From: Chiloscyllium plagiosum
Lineage: Eukaryota
NCBI RefSeq assembly: GCF_004010195.1
Contig: NC_057719.1
Coordinates: 48,467,896 to 48,505,447, forward strand
Length of the DNA: 37,552 bases
Direction of reading: 5' to 3'
Notes under the pieces: model-generated
Told to the model about the DNA's origin: nothing
What the model saw: the letters and a program-made list of their open reading frames with translations, nothing else
Database searches by the model: none
Part shown: one piece after another, positions 2,026 through 37,552 of the stretch
How the letters are laid out: every line of letters begins with the position of its first letter
How positions within the stretch are numbered: position 1 is the stretch's first letter
Program-made: the position numbers and the translations under genes

Positions 2026-2150
2026 TCCAGAGTGTGGTGCTGGAAAAGCACAGCAGGTCAGGCAGCCTCCGAGGAGCAGGAGAATTGATGTTTTGGGTAT
2101 AAGCCCTTCATCAGGGGCTGATCTCCAGCATCTGCAGTCCTCACTTTCTC
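2026..2150 (-). mobile_element. Short Penelope-like insertion with decayed hammerhead motif and 17-bp TSD
   Basis: Exact direct repeat ctgggaaattgaattag at 2009-2025 and 2151-2167. Minus strand reads cctgatgaagggcttatacccaaaacatca, a CpG-decayed version of the 37366-37401 motif. Confidence 0.8.
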
Positions 2151-9716: not shown

Positions 9717-12560
9717 GGGGTGAGGTGCTGGCCTAGTGATATTATCACAGACTATTAATCCAGAAATTCAGCTAATGTTAATCCTTGAAGGAGCTAAGCT
9801 CGAAACCCGCCAGGGTAAGATTTGGTAGGATTTGAATTTAACCCACAACAATGTAGTTAACTCTTAACTACCCTCTGAAATGCACTTGCAAGCCAGTCAG
9901 TTGTGTCAGTCGCAACAAAGTCTCAACAAAGAAATGAAATGAAACCAAGTAGACCATGTGGCGTTGACCGAGGCAGCGGAAGTGACAATCAAAAAACAGT
10001 CCTCTTGACCTTACTAAGACCTTACCAACTTCTTGAGGCTGGTGCCAAAATTGGGAGAGCTGTCTCACAGACTATCAAGCAGCAGCCTGACACAGTGATA
10101 CTCAAGGGATTATACCTTACAGAAAATGTCCCAATATCGTCCCTGATATGTCCTATACTACCAGCAAGGCAAACGCAGCAGAGGTTGCAGCACTCAGGAG
10201 GAAGTTGCTCTGGGTATCCTCACTATCGACTTCCCATCCCATGAAGCCTCATGACTTAGGTTAAACATGGGCAAGGAAATTTCCTGTAACTCACCATGTA
10301 CATCCTCCCTTGTTGATGAATCAATACTCCTCCATGTGGAACAGCACTTGGATAAAGCACTGAGGACAGAAGTGGTGCAAAATATGGGGATTTCAGTGTC
10401 CAGCGCCAAGAGTACCTCAGCAGTATGAAAGATTGAGCTGGTTGGGTCCTAAAGATTATAGCTGCAAGACTGGATCTGTGGCTGGTGATGAGGGAACCAA
10501 CAAACTAACACATTTGATCTCACTCTGATGAAAGATTCCAACCTGAAACATCGACTCCCCTATTACACAGATGCTGCTTGATTTGCCATGTCGACTTTGA
10601 CCTCATCCTTATCAATCTGCCAGCTGCAGATGGATTTGCAAATAGGACAGTGCTAATAAGAGTGACCATCACACAGTTCTTGTAGAGGTGAAGTCCCGTC
10701 TTCACATTGAGAATAACTATCATGTGTGGCACAAGCGTGATGCTAAATGGGACAGACTTTGAACAGATTAAGCAACTCAAAACTCAAAACTGGGCATCCA
10801 GTGAGATACTGTGGGCAATCAGCAGCAGAATTGTGCTGTGACGCAATCTGCTACCTCATAGCCTGGCATGTCTCCCACTCAACCATTACTATCAACCCTA
10901 GTTCAATGGAGAATACTGGAGGGCATGCCAGGAGTAGCACCAGACATAGAAAAAAATACATAAAACCAATGAAGTACCGGACAGGACTGCTTGTGTACCA
11001 AATAGCATAAGCAGCAAGTGATAGACAGAGCTAAGTGATCCCACAACCAACAGATCAGGTCTAAGCTCTGTAGTCCTCTGCCATCTAGTCATGAATTAAA
11101 TAACTCAGTAGAAGAGTATGATCCACAAATATCTCCATCCTCAATGATAGAAGAACCCAATGTCTGAGTTCAAAAGATAAGTATGAAGCAACTGCAGTAA
11201 TCTTCAGCCAGAAATGCCAAGTAGATGATCCAGCATGACCTTCCTCCAGTGGTCCCCAGCATCACAAATGCCAGTCTTCAGCCAATTTGATTCACTTTTC
11301 AAGAAACAGTCAGAGGCATTGATTACTGCAAAGGCCAGTGGCCCTCATTCCAGCAATAGGACTGAAGACTCGTGCTCCAGAACTTTCCACGCTCCTAGCC
11401 AAGCTGTTCCAATACAGTTATAATACTGGTATCTATCTGACGATGTGAAAAATTGCCCAGGTATCTCTTGTACATCAAAAGAAGGACAAATCTAACCCAG
11501 CCAATTACTGTCTCATCAGTCTACTTTCAATCATCAGAAAAGTAATGGAAAGTGGCATCAATGGTGCTATTGAGCAGCACCTGCTCAGCAATAACCTGAT
11601 AAGTGACACCCAGTTTGATTCCGCCAGGGCCATTCGGCTCCTGACTTCATTACAGCTTTGGTACAAATATGTACAAAAGCATTAAATTCCAATGGTAAGG
11701 TGCAAATGTTAGCCATTGACATCAAGACCACATTCATCCAAATGTGGCATCAAGGAGCCCTAGCAAAACTGGAATCAATGGATATCAGGAGGCAAATTCT
11801 GCTGTTTGGTGTTATATCTGGCACTGAGGTAGCTAGTTGTGGTTGTTAGAGGTCAGTCACCTCAGTTCAAGGACATCTCTTACAAGAGTCCCTCAGGGTA
11901 GTGTCTTGGGCCCAATCATCTTCAACTGCTTCATCTTTGACCTTCTCTCCATCAGAAATCAGGATATTTGCTGATGATTGTGCATTGTCCAGCACGATTC
12001 ACAACTCCTCTGAAGCAGTCCATGTCAAAATGCACCTAGATCTGGACAGTATCCAGGCTTGGGTTGACAACGGCAAGTAACATTCCCACCACACAGCTGT
12101 TAGGAAATGACCATTTTCAATCATCTAACTACTGCCTCAACAATCATTAGTGTTCCCTTAATCAAATCCTTCACTTTCAACATCTTGAGGTTATCATTGA
12201 CCAGAAACTTAACTGGACTCACCATTATAAATACAGTGGTTACAAGAGTAGATCAGAGGTGTACCCCTGGATTCCTCAAAGCTTGCCTGTCATCTGCAAG
12301 GCACAAGTAAGCAGTGTGATGGAATACTCCCCACTTGCTTGGATGAGTGCAACTCCGTTAACACTCAAGAGGCTTGGCAGCATCCAGGACAAAGAGGCCA
12401 CTTTGCCATATCCACAAACATCCATTGCCTCCACCACTGTAAAGTAATGTGTTCTATATACATGATACACTGCAGAAGCTCGCTACAAATTCATAGACAC
12501 ACCTTCCAAACACAAAATCACTTATGTCTAGAAAGACAAGAGCAGCAGATACTTGGAATA
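9717..12560 (+). mobile_element. Decayed CR1-group LINE (APE endonuclease + RT) with a SINE-like 5' head and no ORF1
   Basis: Frame-shifted motifs: KQQPDTVIL (APE, ~10080), SNPANYCLISLLSIIRKVME (~11490), LAIDIKTTF..WHQGAL (~11710), VPQGSVLGP (~11890), FADD (~11968). 9717-9900 is a tRNA/Deu-SINE-like sequence. Confidence 0.8.
10521..10592 (+). mobile_element. Tiny PLE-derived fragment with hammerhead-like motif inserted in the LINE
   Basis: CTGATGA-A-agattccaacct-GAAA-CATC-gact followed by acagatgctgc, as in the 26158 element. Flanked by tttgatctca / tttgacctca (imperfect TSD). Confidence 0.6.
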
Positions 12561-12944: not shown

Positions 12945-14912
12945 TTCAGGCAATTTTGACAGTATTAGACAAGAACTTTCAAAAGCTGATTGGGTGCCGA
13001 TGTTTGCGGGTAAAAGGATGGCTGGAAAATCGGGAGCCTTCAGAAATGAGATAACGTGAGTCCAGAGAAAGTATATTCTTGTTAGGGTGAAAGGAAAGGC
13101 TGGTAGGTGTAAGGAATGCTGAATGACTAAAGAAATTGAAGTTTTGGTTAAAAAGGAAGCATATGTCAGGTAGAGACAGGATCAATCGAGTGAATCCTTA
13201 GAAGAATATAAAGGCAGTTGGAGTATACTTAAGAGGGAAATCAGGAGGGCAAGCAGGGGACATGAGATAGCTTTGGCAAATAGAATGAAGGAGAATCCAA
13301 AGGGATTTTACAAATACATTAAGGACAAAAGGGTAACTAGGGAGAGAATAGGGCCCCTCAAAGATCAGCAAGGCGGTCTTTGTGTGGAGCCGCAGGAGAT
13401 GGGAGAGATACTAAACGAGTATTTTGCATCAATATTTACTGTGGAAAAGGACATGCAAGATATAGAATGTAGGGAAATAGATGCTGACACCTTGCAAAAG
13501 AAAAGGAAGTGTTGGATGTCTTGAAACGCATAAAAGTGAATAGATCCTCAGGACCTGATCAGATGTACCCTAGAACTCTGTGGGAAGCTAGAGAAGTGAT
13601 TGCTGGGCCTCTTGCTGAGATATTTGTATCATTGATAGTCACAGGTGAGGTGCCAGAAGACTGGAGATTGGCTAATGTGGTGCCACTGTTTAAGAAAGGT
13701 GATAAGGAAAAGCCAGGGAACTATAGACCAGTGAGCCTGATGTCGGTGGTGGGCAAGTTGTTGAAGGGAATCCTGCGGGAGACTGGTTAGCAAGGTTAGA
13801 TCTCATGGAATACAGGGATAACTAGCCATTTGGATCAGAACTGGCTCAAAGGTAGAAGACAGAGGATGGTGGTGGAGGGTTGCTTTTCAGACTGGAGGCC
13901 TGTGACCAGTGGAGTGCCATAAGGATTAGTGCTGGGTCCGCTACTCTTTGTCATTCATATAAATGATTTGGATGTGAGCATAAGAGGTACAGTTAGTAAG
14001 TTTGCAGATGACACCAAAATTGAAGGTGTAGTGGAGAGTGAAGAAGGTTATCTCAGATTACAACAGGATCTTGATCAGATGGGCCAATGGGCTGAGAAGT
14101 GGCAGATGGAGTCTAATTTAGATAAATGTGAAGTTCTGCATTTTGGGAAAGCAAATCTTAGCAGGACTTATTCACTTAATGGTAAGGTCCTAGGGAGTGT
14201 TGCTGAACAAAGAGACCTTGGAGTGCAAGTTCATAGCTCCTTGAAAGTGGAGTCGCGGGTAGATGGGATAGTGAAGAAGGCATTTGATATGCTTTCTTTT
14301 ATTGGTCAGGGTATTGAGTACAGGAGTTGGGAGGTCATGTTGCAGCTAAACCGGACATTGTTTAAGCCACTGTTGTAATATTGCATGCAATTCTGGTCTC
14401 CTTCCTATCAGAAGAATGTTGTGAAACTTGAAAGAGTTCAGAAAGGACTTACAAGGATGTTGCCAGGGTTGGAGGATTTGAGCAATAGGGAGAGGTTGAA
14501 TAGGCTAGTGCTGTTTTCCCTAGAGCATCAGAGGCTGAGGGGTGACCTTAGAGGTTTACAAAATGATGAGGGGCATGGATAGGATAAATAGACAAAGTCT
14601 TTTCCCTGGGGTGGGGGAGTCCAGAACTAGAGAGCATAGGTTTAGGGTGAGAGGGGAAAGATATAAAAAAGACCTAAGGGGCAACATTTTCACGCAGAGG
14701 GTGGTACGTGTATGGAAAGAGCTACCCGAGGAATTGGTGGAGGCTGGTACAATTGCAACATTTAAAAGATATCTGCATGGGTATATGAATAGGAGGGGTT
14801 TGGAGGGTATGGACCAGGTGCTGGCAGTTGGGACCAGATTGGGTTGGGATCTGGTTGGCATGGACGAGTTGAACTGAAGGGTCTGTTTCCGTGACGTACA
14901 TCTCTATGACTG
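12945..14912 (+). mobile_element. 5'-truncated CR1-type LINE with an internal deletion at ~13780
   Basis: NPKGFYKYI, GPDQMYPRTL, DWRLANVVPLFKKG..PGNYRPVSL, LGPLLFVIHINDLD, KFADDTKI, and a terminal tail. Confidence 0.95.
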
Positions 14913-21703: not shown

Positions 21704-22797
21704 AGGTCCCTTATGGCTTGTGATATTCATAAATGATTGTAGATGAGAATAAGCATGGGGTGTGATAAGTAGGTTTCTGGCTTACACAAAGATTGGCTAG
21801 GTGGTGGATAGTCAGGAGAAAGGTGTTAGATAACAATGGTATAAATGGCAGATCAGGACAAAAAGAATTTTATCCTGGTAAGTGTGAGGTGATGTAGTTT
21901 GGAAGAAGAAACAAGACAAGGGAGTACTAAATGAATGGCAGGACACTGGGAAGCTCAGATGAAACGAGGAATCTTGGGGTGCTTGACCACAAATGCCTGA
22001 AAGTGGCAGGTTAGGGCAATAGGGTTGTTAAGAAGGCATATGGGATGCTTGCCTTTCAGTCATGGCATTGATTGTAAGAGCAGGGAAGTCACTTTGGAGC
22101 TTGGCAGAATTTTAGTTTGTCTACACATTGAGTACTGTGATTATCACACTGAGAAGGATGTGTTTGTGTTGGAGGAGTGCAAAGGAAATTTACCAGGATA
22201 ATGCCTGGATGGACCATTTCACCTTTTGAAGAGAGGCAGGATACACTTCAGTTGTTTTCTTTGGAGAAGAAAAGGTTGATGAGGGACCGAACAGAGGTAT
22301 ATAAGGTTATGAGGGACACGAACAGAATGAGTAGAAACCAGTAACAAGGGGCATGACTTTAAAGTGAAAGGCAGGAGGTTTGGAGGGGATATGAGGGAAA
22401 AAAAACTTTATCTGGAGTGCAGTGGCTGGGAGGGTAGTTGAGGTGGAAGACCTCACAATCTTTAAAAAATACTTTAGTGAGCACTTGAAATGTCATAACA
22501 TCCAAGACTATGGGGCTACTGCAAGAAACTGAGACTCGTGTCAATAGTAGTGTATTTTTGGCAGTACAGACTTGATGGGCTGTAGGGACTCTTCCCTACA
22601 GTATGATTCTAGATTCCATGATGATGCAACATTATTTCAGGTGGTATCTTGTGAATTCCCAAGTATTGGATCTCTTCAGCACTTTGCAGCTTGTGGCACT
22701 TTCATCTGAAGGCATTGAACCCGTTAAAGTCTGCTGCTTTGATTTTAGTTAAATATTACGCAACACCAGGTTATAGTCTAACAAGTGTATTTGGACG

Positions 22798-22832
22798 CAC
22801 TAGCTTTCGGAGTGCTATTCCTTCATCAGGTG
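22798..22832 (-). ncRNA. Minimal type I hammerhead ribozyme motif within a PLE pseudo-LTR fragment (~22748-22836)
   Basis: Minus strand: CAC-CUGAUGA-A-GGA(auagcac)UCC-GAAA-GCUA-GUG. Core intact, stem I CAC/GUG, stem II GGA/UCC, palindromic stem III AGCU, predicted cleavage after CUA. Confidence 0.75.
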
Positions 22833-22844
22833 GTTGTTTTATTT

Positions 22845-28441: not shown

Positions 28442-29638
28442 GAGGACCAAGCATGTAGATGAGGGTAGGGCAGTTCACGTGGTGTACATGGACTTCAGTA
28501 AAGCCTTTGATAACGTTCCACATGGTAGGCTTTTGGAGAAAATGCAGAGGCATGGAATTGAGGGTGATTTAGCAGTTTGGATTAGAAACTTGCTTTCTGA
28601 AAGAAGGCGGCGAGTGTGGTTGATGGAAAATATTCAGCCTGGAGCCCGGTTACTAGTGGTGTGCCACAAGGATCTGTTTTGGGACTATTGCTGTTTGTCA
28701 TTTTTATAAATGACTTAGACACAGGCATAGGTGGATGGATTAGTGAATTTGCAGACGACACTAAAGTCGATGGAGCAGTAGACAGTTTGGAAGAATGTTA
28801 CAGGTTGCAGGGGGACTTGGATAAACTGCAGAATTGGGCTGAGAGGTGGCAAATGGAGTTCAATGCAGCTAAATGTGAGATGATGCACTTTAGGAAGAAT
28901 AACAGGAAGGCAGAGTACTGGGTCAATGGAAAAATTCTTGGTCGTGTGGATGTGCAGAGGGATCTTGGAGTCCATGTACATAGATCCCTGAAAGTTGCCA
29001 CTCAGGTGTTGTTAAGAAGGCATACGGTGTGTTAGGTTTCATTCGTAGAGGGATTGAGTTCCAAAGCCGCAATATCATGCTGCAACTATACAACGCTGGT
29101 GCAGCCGCACTTGGAAGATTGTGTACAGTTCTGGTCCTCCTATATCGGGAAGGATTTGGAAGCATTGGAAAAGATGCAGAGGAGATTTACCAGGATGTTG
29201 CCTGGTCTGGAGGGAAGGTCTTACGAGGAAAGGCTGAGAGATTTGGGTCTGTTCTCATTGGAAAGAAGAAGGCTAAGAGGAAATTTGATAGAGACATACA
29301 AGATGATCAGAGGATTAGATAGGGTAGACGGTGAAAGTCTTTTTTTCCTCGGATGATGTCGCCAGCTTGTACGAGGGGGCAGAACTATGAATTGACGGGT
29401 GATAGATTTAAGACAGATGTCAGAGGCAGGTTCTTTAGGCAGAGAGTGGTAAGGGCATGGAATGCCCTACCTGCTAATGTAGTCAACTCAGCCACATTAG
29501 GGAGATTTAAACAATCCTTAGATAAGCACATGGATGATTTTGGGATAGTGTAGGGGGACGAGCTGAGAATAGTTCACAGGTCGGTGCAACATCAAGGGCT
29601 GAAGGGCCTGCTCCGCGCTGTATCATTCGATGTTCGAT
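28442..29638 (+). mobile_element. 5'-truncated CR1-type LINE nested in the Gypsy gag region
   Basis: VYMDFSKAFDNVPHGRL, SGVPQGSVLG, FADDTKV, LVQPHLEDCVQFWS; tail gggctgaagggcctgctccgcgctgta. Confidence 0.93.
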
Positions 29639-33158: not shown

Positions 33159-36080
33159 TTTTCTAATTTCCCCTATAACTGAACGGTCCCTCCCTCTATT
33201 TAGTTGAAAGTCCCACGTTACTAGGGCTGTAGAAAGGGCTTTAAACCGAATGGGGGGAGAGTTCAGTTGTAGGGGAAATTAGAAAACCCAAATTAAATGT
33301 GCAGAACTCAGGAGACGTTATTAAAATCTCCAGCACAGACACAAATAGGACAGAGTGTATGGAAAGTGTTAACAGTCAAACTTCAAGCATGCTGGACAAA
33401 TAAATGACAATGAGAAGAGAGACAGTTAATATTCAAGGATATATATCCTATCGAAAAGATAGCAGGTGGGCAGAGTGGGTGGGGTTGCCTTATTAGGAAG
33501 AAATGAAATTAAATCAATAGTAAGAAATGAAGTAGAGTCGGATGGTCTAGAAGCTGTGTTGGTAGCATTGAGGAACTGCAAATCTGAAAAAACCATAGTT
33601 GGAGTTATGTATAGGCCTCCAAATAGTAGTCAGGAGCTGAGGCATAAGATATACCAAGAGATAGAAAAGATGTGTAGGAAAGGCAAAGTTATAGTGATAA
33701 TGGGGGATTTTAATATGCAAGTAAACTGGGAAAATCAGGTTAGGATTGCAAGAAAAGGAATTTGTGATGGCTTTCTGGAGCAGCTTGTCGTGGAGCCCAC
33801 TCAGGAAAAGGCAATACTGGATTTAGTGTTGTTCAATGAGGCGGACTTGATAAGGAAGTACAAGGTGAAGGAATCCTTAAGAGGCAGAGATCATATTATG
33901 GATTGAATTTACTCTGCAATTTGAGAGGGAGAAGATAGAATCAGAGGTAATAATATTGCAGCTAAATAAAGGCATGAGGGAGGAGCTGGGTAGAATTGAC
34001 TGGGCGAGCAGCTTAGCAGGAAAAACAGTGGAACAGCGATGGCAGGAATTTCTGAGAGGAGTAATTCAGGCGACACAACAGAAACATCCCTAGGAAAAAG
34101 AAGCATGGTACAGCGAGGATGACGCATCATGGCTGACTAGGGAAGTCAGGGATAGCATAAAAGCAAAGCGAAAGCATATAATGTGGCGAAGGACAGTGGG
34201 AAACCAGAGGATTGGGAAGCTTACAAAGAACGACTGAGGGCAACAAAAAAAGAAAAAAAAGGAGGGAGAAGATTAAATATGAGGATAAGCTCGCCAGTAA
34301 TATAAAGGAAGACTGTACAAGTTTCTTTAGATATATAAAGGGCAAAAGTGGGCATTGAGCTACTGGAAAATGATGCTGGAAAAATAGCAGTGGAGACCAA
34401 GGAAATGGCTGAGGAACTGAATAATCACTTTGCATCAGTCTTCATGGTGGAAGACATGAATAATATCCAAACAATTCAAGAGTTGCGGGCAGAGCTGAAT
34501 ATGTTGGTCATCACCAAGGCGAAGGTGCTCGAAAAACTGAATGGCCTGAAGGTAGATAAACTGGACTAGATGGACTACACCTCAGAGTTCCAAGGGAGAT
34601 AGCTGAAGAGTTAGTGGAGACGTTAGTGGTGATCTTTCATGAATTGCTAGAATCTGGGAGGGTCCCAGAGGACTAGAAAATCATGAACATGACACTCCTT
34701 TTTAACAAGGGAATAAGGCAAAAGATGAAAAATTACAGACTGATTGTCTTATCTCAGTCATGGGTAAGTTCCTGGAATCCATTGTGAAGCTTGAGATTTC
34801 TGAATATCATGTGTAAGGTAAAATAGGGCAAAGTCAGCATAGTTTTATCAAGGAAAGGTGATACCTAACAAATCTGCTAGAATTCTTTGAGGAAGGAATG
34901 AGCAGGTTAGACCATGGAAAGCCAATGGATGTTATCTACCTGAACTCCCAGAAGGCCTTTGACAAGGTGCAGAGGAGGCTACTGAGTAAGATAAGGGCCC
35001 ATGGTGTCACCAGCAAGGTGCTAGCATGGATAGAAGCTTATCTGTCTGGCAGAAAGCAAAGAGTGGGAATAAAAAGGTCCTCCTCAGGATGACAACTGGT
35101 GACAAGTGGTTCCACAAGGCATAGTATTTGGACCACAGCTTTTCACTTTATATATTAACAATCTAGATGAAGGAACTGAGGGCATTCTGGCTAAGTTTGC
35201 ACATGATAGGTCAAGGGACAGTAGCATTGAGGAGGCAGACAGGCTGCAGAAGGATTTGGGCAGGTTAGGTGAGTGGGCAAAGAAGTCGCAGATGGAGTAT
35301 AATTAGGGAAAGAGAGGTCATGCACGTTGGTAGGAAGAGTAGAGGCATGGACTATTTTCTAAATGGGGAGAAAATTCAGAAGTCTGAAGTGCACAGAGAC
35401 TTGGCCGTTCTAGTCCAGGATTCTCACAAGGTAAACTTGCAGATTGAGTCAGTAGTTAGGAAGGCAAATGCACCAATGGCATTTATTTTGAGAGGACTTG
35501 AACATAAAAACACGGATGTACTTCTGACGCTCTCAGGCTTTGGTCAGAACATACTTGGAGTGTTATGCGTAGTTTTGGAACCAATATGTCAAGAAGGATC
35601 TATTGGCCCTGGAGCATGTTCAGAGGAGGTTCATAACAGTTTTCCCAGGAATCAAAGACTTAACACGTGAGAAACATTTGAAGATTCGGGCTTTCTACTT
35701 GATGGAGTTCAGAAAGATGAAGAGGGCATCTAATATAAACTTACTAAATGGTCTGGACAGAGTGCATTTGGGAAGATGTTCATTTGTAGGAGAGACTAGG
35801 ACCCGAGGACATAGCCTTAAAGTAAAGGGAAGACCTTTTAGAATGGAGATAAGGAGAGACTTCTTCAGCCAGAGAGTGGTGAATCTATGGAAATCATTGC
35901 CATTGAAGGCTGTGGAGGCCAGGTCATTGGGTTGATGGATAGGTTCTTGATTATCAAAGGGATCAAGGGTTACAGGGAGAGAGCCGGAGAATGGGGAATT
36001 AACAGCCATGATTGAATGGTAGAACAGACTCGATGGGCTGAATGGCCTAATTTCTGCTCCTATGGCTTACGGTCTCTTAT
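33159..36080 (+). mobile_element. CR1-type LINE (ORF1 end, APE, RT, tail) nested in the Gypsy 3' LTR, with a 5' inverted segment
   Basis: GGVALL, GVMYRPPNS, IMGDFN, AILDLVLFNE, DVIYLNSQKAFDKV, VPQGIVFGPQLFTLYINNL, FFSQRVVNLWKSLP; tail gggctgaatggcctaatttctgctcctat. Confidence 0.93.
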
Positions 36081-36274
36081 GGGTTCTATTCACTCTAGCT
36101 AGCTCTTAGCTAGCTGGATCAGTGTCAGTGGCTTGGTAATTGGATGTTGGCCTTTGAGGAGTCATTTCAGTGTGAAAAAAGATGTCTGTCTGAGGCTGGG
36201 CCAATAAATAAGGGAAACAAGTTAAATAGTCAAGGCAGGCAAGAGCACTGCAGAGAATGAGGTAATACTGATAA

Positions 36275-37308
36275 ATTAAACTGCATTTATTTCAATGCAA
36301 GAGGCCTGACAGGTAAGGCAGATGAGCTTAGGGCATGGTTGGGAACATAAGACTGGGATATCAGGTATTACAGTAATGTGGATCAGGGAGGGGCAGGACT
36401 AGCAGCACAATGTTCTGTGATATAGAAACCCTAGGAAGAGTAGAAAAGGGGAGGGGGGGGGCAAGAGAAGGGGCGTAAAGTTTTTGGTGAAGAATAATAT
36501 TCTGGTTATTTTTAGGGAGGATATTCCTGGGAGAATGTACAGTGAAGTTGTGTGGGTGGAACTGAGAAATAAGAAAGGGATGATGACCTTATTGGGATTG
36601 TAATGTAGACCGTGCCAACTGGCCACCCACCCCACCCCTGCGCACACACCCGCCTGTCCGTCCAAAGTCAGTGGGAAATGGAGAAGGAAATATGTAAGGA
36701 GGTCTCCAATATCTGTAAGAATAAAAAGGTTTCAATGGTAGGAGATTTTCACTTTCCAGACATAGACTGGGACTGCGATAGTGTTAAGGGCTTGGATGGA
36801 TAGGAATTTGTTAAACAAGAAATTTTTCTTAATAAATGGATGTACCTACTGGAGAAGGAGCAAAATGTGACCACCTCTTGGGGAATAAGGCAGGGCAGGT
36901 AATTGAGGTGTCAGTGGGAGAGCACTTTGGAGCAAGTGATCATGATTCTATTAGTTTTAAAATAATTATGGAAAAGGATATATCTGATCTAAAAGTTAAA
37001 GGTCTAAATTGGTGTAGAGCCATTTTTGACGGTATTAGGCAGGAACTTTCAAAGGTTGACTGGAAGATGCTGTTCGCAGGTAAAACGATAGTCACAAAAT
37101 TGGAGGCCTTCAACATGAGAATGAGAGGTCAGAGGCAGTATGTTCCTGTTAGTGAAGGGCAGGGTAGATGAAGGGAATGCTGAATGACTAGAGAAATTGA
37201 GGCTTTGGTCAAGAAAATGGAGGCATATGTCAGGTATAGACTGCTGAGATTGAGTGAATCCCTAGAGGAGTATAATGTCAGCAGGAGTATACTCTAGACA
37301 GAATTCAG
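36275..37308 (+). mobile_element. CR1-type LINE ORF2 5' part (APE), interrupted by a PLE
   Basis: LNCIYFNARGLTGKADEL, VGDFHFPDIDWD, EHFGASDHDSISF; 37020-37290 is homologous to 12950-13230. Confidence 0.88.
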
Positions 37309-37552
37309 CTGAAAATGTGTTGCTGGAAAAGCGCAGCAGGTTAGGCAGCATCCAGGGAACAGGAGAATCGACGTTTCGGGCATAAGCCCTTCTTCAGGAA
37401 TGAGGAAAGTTTGTCCAGCAGGCTAAGATAAAAGGTAGGGAGGAGGGACTTGGGGGACGGGTGTCGGAAGGTCAAGGTGAGGGTGATAGGTCAGACGGGG
37501 GTGGGGGCGGAGAGGTCGGGAAGAAGATTGCAGGTTAGGAAGGCAGTGCTGA
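37309..37552 (-). mobile_element. Young-looking Penelope-like element 3' end/pseudo-LTR (runs off window)
   Basis: Same family as 2026-2116 with CpGs retained; G-rich plus strand as at 400-540. Confidence 0.8.
37366..37401 (-). ncRNA. Minimal type I hammerhead ribozyme motif
   Basis: Minus strand: AUUC-CUGAAGA-A-GGGC(UUAU)GCCC-GAAA-CGUC-GAUU. Core intact, perfect 4-bp stem II, palindromic stem III ACGU, canonical GUC cleavage triplet; stem I is weak (one U-U mismatch). Confidence 0.75.

Follow-up and report, generated by a model that had tools for sequence, protein, structure and literature searches.

Near one end of a 37,552-nt stretch of the Chiloscyllium plagiosum genome (hereafter the window), the minus strand carries a short sequence laid out like a hammerhead ribozyme, which raises the question of what element it belongs to and whether the RNA of that element cuts itself there. 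A sequence-only reading had placed at 37366-37401 a minus-strand hammerhead with all core nucleotides, a perfect stem II and a GUC site, and the letters are as it claimed: read from 37401 to 37366, the minus strand has the complete hammerhead core together with a stem II of 4 bp, the additional A, ACGU and GUC. The 5′ strand of stem I (37401-37398) is followed by the core C3-A9, in which N7 is A (37397-37391), by the extra A between positions 9 and 10.1 (37390), and by stem II, built of four G-C or C-G pairs with a 4-nt loop (37389-37386 with 37381-37378) and comprising the pair G10.1-C11.1 (G37389-C37378). Then come GAAA (37377-37374), C15.2 (37373), G16.2 (37372), U16.1 (37371), C17 (37370), a predicted cut between 37370 and 37369, and the 3′ strand of stem I (37369-37366). 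The order CUGANGA, GAAA, NUH is that of the minimal hammerheads (min-HHR) of metazoan Penelope-like elements (PLEs). Helix III is absent, positions 15.2-16.2 are palindromic, and the palindrome A15.1-C15.2-G16.2-U16.1 (37371-37374) could pair only between two copies. Stem I is weak (C-G, U-A, a U·U mismatch and A-U, with only two contiguous pairs), that is, 2 bp, U·U and 1 bp in the subfamily of the window against the ~4-5 bp of helix I in min-HHR. Below, positions are counted from C3 = 0, A37401 being -4 and the base after the cut +28.

An Rfam scan of the window with E up to 1 matched no hammerhead family, the folding energy of the 36-mer was unremarkable (z = -1.33), and the bare core pattern occurred in the window at chance level (6 matches for 4.63 expected). 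Because the bare core is not rare, Rfam is blank and the folding energy is ordinary, the case for the motif rests on family evidence. A genome-wide motif scan, proposed by the sequence-only reading, provided much of it: the exact 32-mer of the motif has 30,393 copies in the 3.56-Gb genome, and the reversed control has 0. A sample of 80 stretches of 10 kb, taken at fixed round positions on the larger contigs (800 kb, of which 36,423 bases are N), held the exact 32-mer 7 times; extrapolated to the genome this makes 31,119, in agreement with the true count. A structural descriptor matched 46 times in this sample, against 0 times in the reversed sequence and 0-1 times in 10 shuffles, and the structured motif is far above chance. 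These 46 matches correspond to about 204,000 motif-intact hammerheads genome-wide (95% range 150,000-273,000); 21 of them, counted by hand, still have the palindrome as well as two or more pairs in stem I, corresponding to about 93,000, and 45 carry an extra base between 9 and 10.1. A profile search of the same 800 kb gave 120 family fragments, or about 530,000 genome-wide.

We also compared 254 distinct motifs across loci, partly chosen by likeness to the window, and distinguished at least four hammerhead families with different stems II. The covarying features named here lay outside the requirements of the descriptor. Over the four families, the pair 2.1-1.1 is C-G, U-A or A-U, the pair 2.2-1.2 is U-A, A-U or C-G, and the pair 15.2-16.2 is either C-G (family A, with CpG decay) or G-C (family C). 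The stem III palindrome pointed out by the sequence-only reading is retained across families, as ACGU or AGCU, and core conservation holds in the family, the catalytic positions being fixed over the 254 motifs while the stems covary. Among 64 close relatives of the window copy, variants recur at +30, within loop II and beyond the motif; the inner core positions vary little, G12 with its CpG decay excepted, and variation at C3-G5 goes with truncation of the copies. This pattern fits selection for the hammerhead fold in parent elements, as far as sequence comparison can tell. Together with the sequence itself and the descriptor with its controls, the covariation leads us to regard 37366-37401 as a genuine minimal type I hammerhead motif, whose self-cutting is predicted to be weak and to take place in pairs.

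The subfamily of the window, with U·U in stem I, is the most abundant (159 of the 254 motifs, from loci partly picked for resembling the window). Stem I has all 4 bp in family B and in the GAAU subfamily, which has a different loop II and is predicted to fold better (L090:4287-4326, L083, L143 and L275). Other relatives were noted along the way. The window has a second hammerhead at 22795-22833 (minus strand), of family C, with the AGCU palindrome, a CUA site and one stem II mismatch, and two older, broken relatives of the pseudo-LTR (pLTR), at 2031-2116 (minus strand), where G12 is lost, and at 10524-10588 (plus strand), where stem II is disrupted. Family D hammerheads have U as the extra base and a stem II of 5-7 bp (L072:7747-7792, L160:4718-4763, L027:5110-5155).

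The hammerhead had been attributed to the pLTR of a PLE, and this attribution is borne out by other copies, in which reverse transcriptase (RT) and GIY-YIG are encoded upstream of the same pLTR. At locus L075, RT, GIY-YIG and a pLTR 90.5% identical to that of the window follow one another contiguously, with frameshifts; the RT is supported by an RVT_1 match (E 8e-7), and the GIY-YIG match is weak (E 0.002), below the Pfam cut-off in shark copies. At L285, which belongs to a sister subfamily, the order is pLTR, hammerhead, tail, ATG and ORF N-terminus, the first likely ATG being downstream of the tail. Compared by eye with the alignment rows in the supplement of PMC8557442, the family looks like the Neptune rows, and unlike those of Nematis or Poseidon, in its linker CX4CxxC, its spacer and its C-terminus, and the linker zinc finger (CHRRNCKTC in P0002, CNRRRCKT in L075) fits the Neptune CX2-5CxxC and spacer length. 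By these motifs, the family, an EN+ PLE, is likely of the Neptune clade. Its elasmobranch character, also claimed at the outset, agrees with the best 120 of 1,237 RT matches, in which the nearest named relatives are from Chiloscyllium punctatum (92% and 90%), Stegostoma (72%) and Mobula (69%), followed by marine invertebrates near 50%. An RT search of the genome gave 33,231 first-look candidates. The description of the family as recently active stands loosely: copies are mostly 85-97% alike, which favours it, and against it no intact full ORF was found: of 150 listed loci, 20 were selected for their long frames, and open frames without gaps reached about 600 aa at most in them. A full-length copy with two hammerheads was found in none of 20 RT loci, 29 N-terminal loci and 6 paired loci, many interiors of which are N. 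Beside one RT fragment, a 400-codon open frame made of short tandem repeats (L063:6837-8036, minus strand) is probably satellite.

The copy in the window is an inverted, tail-less pLTR arm on the minus strand, which spans 37309-37552, continues to the window end and stops ~91 nt after C3. The sequence-only reading had suggested looking past 37552 for RT and GIY-YIG. A PLE pLTR arm and a target duplication do lie there, around an interior that is partly N, and the coding sequences were found in other copies. After an unreadable part comes a direct, tailed arm ending at +125, and the two arms of the insertion match at 221 of 228 aligned bases, with one further 18-nt gap. A 16-bp target-site duplication bounds the insertion, its left copy at 37293-37308 (plus strand) and its identical copy after the tailed arm (L013:3419-3434). 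The insertion is hosted by a degraded LINE at 36200-37292 (plus strand; left limit approximate), which we take to be CR1-like by resemblance and whose LINE-like sequence resumes past the right duplication; Pfam gave no family for the ORF 36836-37168 within it. The partner hammerhead of the same insertion is on the opposite strand and, because its two hammerheads sit on opposite strands, the locus is unable to form a same-strand dimer. Being the inverted arm without a tail, in an insertion that a 16-bp target duplication bounds, the window copy is a passive relic and not itself a working partner in a dimer. An inverted truncated copy with a tail on one end only is described as typical of PLEs in the available text of bioRxiv 2021.04.23.441226. 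Elsewhere in the window, degraded LINE pieces lie at 13174-14877, 28601-29356, 33463-33906 and 35269-35935, with RVT_1 at 13923-14375 and an exonuclease-endonuclease-phosphatase domain at 33463-33903.

As the window copy is one of many, the boundaries of the other copies were used to ask which RNAs had been copied. Genome-wide start patterns, which demand five mismatched flank bases and differ somewhat in anchor and flank odds, gave 302 starts at -7, 3,985 at -4, 89 at +26, 353 at +28 (the cut site), 145 at +29 and 216 at +31. The first base of the motif is about 10 times commoner as a start than the predicted cut site (9% of the -4 count), and its peak is sharp, 13-fold over -7; cut-site starts exceed their neighbours 1.6-4-fold. 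In the 800-kb sample, 42 copies with at least 88% identity included 10 starting at -4 (2 of the sister subfamily, with other upstream sequence), 4 at -3 and 0 at +28, and the other 78 fragments included 9 starting at -4 and 1 at +28. Coverage by reads and contigs aligned to the window is about three to four times lower upstream of 37401, loose ends are found at that position, and joints to the opposite strand occur at 37390-37401. With 3,985 copies starting at the first base of stem I and 353 at the cut site, most templates were likely uncut RNAs that began at the ribozyme. The minus-strand stretch 37397-37403 is initiator-like, fitting the consensus YYANWYY, and A37401, the commonest 5′ end of the family, is the putative RNA start. 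Poly(A) single-cell RNA, which is a poor test and whose reads come from many copies, showed no clustering of molecule starts or ends among 1,549 reads (a second run gave 0 reads) and speaks for neither side. A splice acceptor at the 5′ boundary was also considered and rejected, as no AG precedes A37401 and the upstream flanks differ from copy to copy.

From 100 listed -4 places, 81 were dissected, 19 palindromic ones being left out; 44 of the 81 are inverted pairs and 37 are solo copies. Exactly one arm is tailed in 40 of the 44 inverted insertions. A duplication of at least 10 bp (one mismatch allowed; mostly 14-16 bp) bounds 38 of the 44, and such a duplication is present in 9 of the 37 solo copies. 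Three of these nine have only G or GG added, as a cap would leave, and of the 73 listed joints that are not palindromic, 38 have G before A(-4), against 26% expected; the -7 control is also G-rich (14 of the first 20 listed), and the sign of a cap-derived extra G is weak. At the cut site, 51 of 100 listed joints, counted by hand, fall in two recurrent classes sharing a GA microhomology, which could arise with no cut at all, by fold-back through stem I in the DNA copy, or by a template jump after run-off at a cut end. Of 20 cut-site loci dissected, 13 have an opposite arm that runs across the uncut site, which is compatible with templates that were never cut or with a complex of two RNAs of which one was cut. 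The small cut-site excess is ambiguous. Two further observations concern single copies. In L250 and L261 the tail runs up to ~150 bases into the ORF start before the next stub, which suggests further internal priming sites or insertion into own copies, and in the solo stubs L214, L221 and L231 the first bases of the element are briefly duplicated between the target duplication and A(-4), as if from repeated template jumps at the RNA 5′ end.

We consider it probable that the motif is a minimal hammerhead in the pLTR of a very abundant Neptune-type PLE, likely slow, acting in pairs and probably assisted by protein, with most RNAs likely copied uncut. The RNA start, the pairing, the protein help and the two-site priming are parts that we infer. 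The element RNA would start at A37401, the first base of stem I, in the upstream pLTR, and would carry a second hammerhead ~3 kb later. The two hammerheads could swap stem I strands and pair through ACGU, forming a double hammerhead. The predicted fold of this double form in the subfamily of the window is at -9.3 kcal/mol, 7.1 higher than two monomers at -16.4, the non-canonical core contacts being omitted; in the GAAU subfamily the double form is 1.1 kcal/mol above two monomers (nearest-neighbour energies, core contacts again omitted). According to the available part of the study by Cervera and De la Peña, the monomer is inactive and the activity of the dimer is low (PMC4209133), and that of Frangieh et al. 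describes the hammerhead of an Anolis PLE as inactive without protein (PMC11167929). The protein would nick both target strands, and reverse transcription would be primed at two internal sites, ~91 and ~125 nt after C3, so that one arm would lack a tail and the other would have one. Stubs of ~100-130 nt reaching the RNA 5′ end would result from priming in the first pLTR, and priming in the last pLTR would yield longer, 5′-truncated copies, of which the window copy would be an example. The one-tailed inverted pairs and uncut stubs agree with the picture reported by Frangieh et al., in whose available text insertion in vitro does not need the Anolis hammerhead and the tail is bounded by two start sites of RT (PMC11167929).

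More tentatively, we put forward as a possibility that the capped transcript begins with the very first base of the hammerhead it carries, which would make the ribozyme a conditional self-decapping switch: uncut RNA would be copied and, rarely, two RNAs pairing in a protein complex would be cut, which would remove a 32-nt capped leader and leave the recurrent cut-site joints. If true, self-decapping would assign a regulatory role to the PLE hammerhead, which has long gone unexplained, and the shark genome would be a mass record of Penelope RNA ends.

The excess of cut-site starts (353, against 89-216 at the neighbours) may also be read as the small footprint of efficient dimer cleavage in vivo, the cut RNAs being circularised, degraded or translated and rarely copied. 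This reading agrees with the dimeric self-cleavage put forward by the sequence-only reading and with the model of Cervera and De la Peña. The core and palindrome retained with covariation across four families would suit such cleavage, as would the full 4-bp stem I of the GAAU subfamily and its double fold within 1.1 kcal/mol of two monomers. However, cut-site starts reach only 9% of the -4 count and, once the two microhomology classes (51 of 100 listed) are subtracted, about 170 remain, level with the neighbours; also, the opposite arm crosses an uncut site at 13 of 20 cut-site loci, and the most abundant subfamily (159 of 254, loci partly picked by likeness) has U·U in stem I. We therefore judge efficient cleavage unlikely.

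Behind it comes another reading that we hold improbable, in which structure in the RNA or cDNA immediately ahead of the core makes the A37401 boundary an RT stop or a hotspot of fold-back, and the motif is conserved as a structural or promoter element and not as a catalyst. Palindromic and fold-back joints are indeed common at -4 (27 of 100 listed), opposite-strand joints lie at 37390-37401, a hairpin is predicted over 37409-37390, and the extra-G evidence is weak. In the available text of PMC2377424, the matching region of the Drosophila Penelope pLTR contains an internal promoter, which also speaks for this reading. Against it, the peak is sharp (13-fold over -7) and coincides with the initiator-like A and the first stem I pair, and the catalytic positions are fixed while the stems covary across families, which fits selection on the ribozyme fold. 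Finally, it is very improbable, and largely refuted for the window copy, that the motif arose by chance, is a stand-alone host ribozyme or belongs to a tandem non-LTR retrozyme: the bare core pattern does arise by chance in the window, and non-LTR retrozymes are reported in one chondrichthyan genome in the available part of 10.64898/2026.07.22.740005, but the flanks are a PLE pLTR with its target duplication, same-strand neighbours are separate stubs kilobases apart in 3 of 3 cases, and the descriptor controls are near zero.

The motif is of a kind already known from Cervera and De la Peña (2014; PMC4209133), and its presence was expected and alone matters little. As far as that article is available, the shark motif resembles the metazoan PLE min-HHR in consisting of a core with no real helix III, in its extra base between 9 and 10.1, its G10.1-C11.1 pair and its palindromic 15.2-16.2, and in its occurrence in pLTRs, mostly as single dispersed copies. 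It differs by the U·U mismatch in stem I of the commonest shark subfamily, and by number: ~200,000 motif-intact copies here, against ~4,000 in coelacanth and ~9,000 in Xenopus, which were counted with another descriptor (PMC4209133). The copy number suggests far higher numbers of hammerhead motifs in shark genomes than were counted there in vertebrates. No shark host is named in the text and supplementary files of PMC4209133 that were searched. The sequence-only reading could not tell whether the family had been described, and the literature search found no paper on it; Lünse et al., several supplements and the chondrichthyan tables of the retrozyme preprint could include it. In the whale shark, an expansion of Penelope-like elements is in print (bioRxiv 443036, available part).

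Animal non-LTR retrozymes, as presented in the available text of 10.64898/2026.07.22.740005, are likewise pLTR-derived, hammerhead-bearing, short and non-autonomous. They are head-to-tail tandems, whereas the shark copies examined are solo or inverted pairs with target duplications, and no head-to-tail hammerhead array was seen at the window locus or in 3 of 3 same-strand pairs. The motif is not a canonical Rfam hammerhead nor, in the loci examined, a tandem retrozyme.

With the Neptune-clade EN+ PLEs, as far as described in bioRxiv 2021.04.23.441226 and PMC8557442, the shark family shares an RT followed by a C-terminal GIY-YIG, the CX2-5CxxC linker, a partial-tandem pLTR, an inverted 5′-truncated arm and a 30-40-bp tail on one end. 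The partial-tandem pLTR is seen ahead of the ORF at L285, and the inverted truncated arm with a one-end tail in 40 of 44 insertions and at the window locus. Unlike the Neptune PLEs of these two sources, it has a very high share of short stubs starting at the hammerhead. PAc, the Poseidon element of Anolis carolinensis, is of another clade and, in the available part of PMC11167929, its ORF starts inside the hammerhead, whereas the shark ATG is downstream of the tail (L285). Like PAc, the shark family has its hammerhead in the pLTR and two 3′ ends bounding the tail, and in both the main template appears to be uncut RNA. What PLE hammerheads do is still described as open in the available texts of PMC11167929 and bioRxiv 2021.04.23.441226. 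With tens of thousands of young copies, RNA ends can be read from insertion boundaries, and these boundaries point to uncut templates starting at the ribozyme, in line with the one in vitro study.
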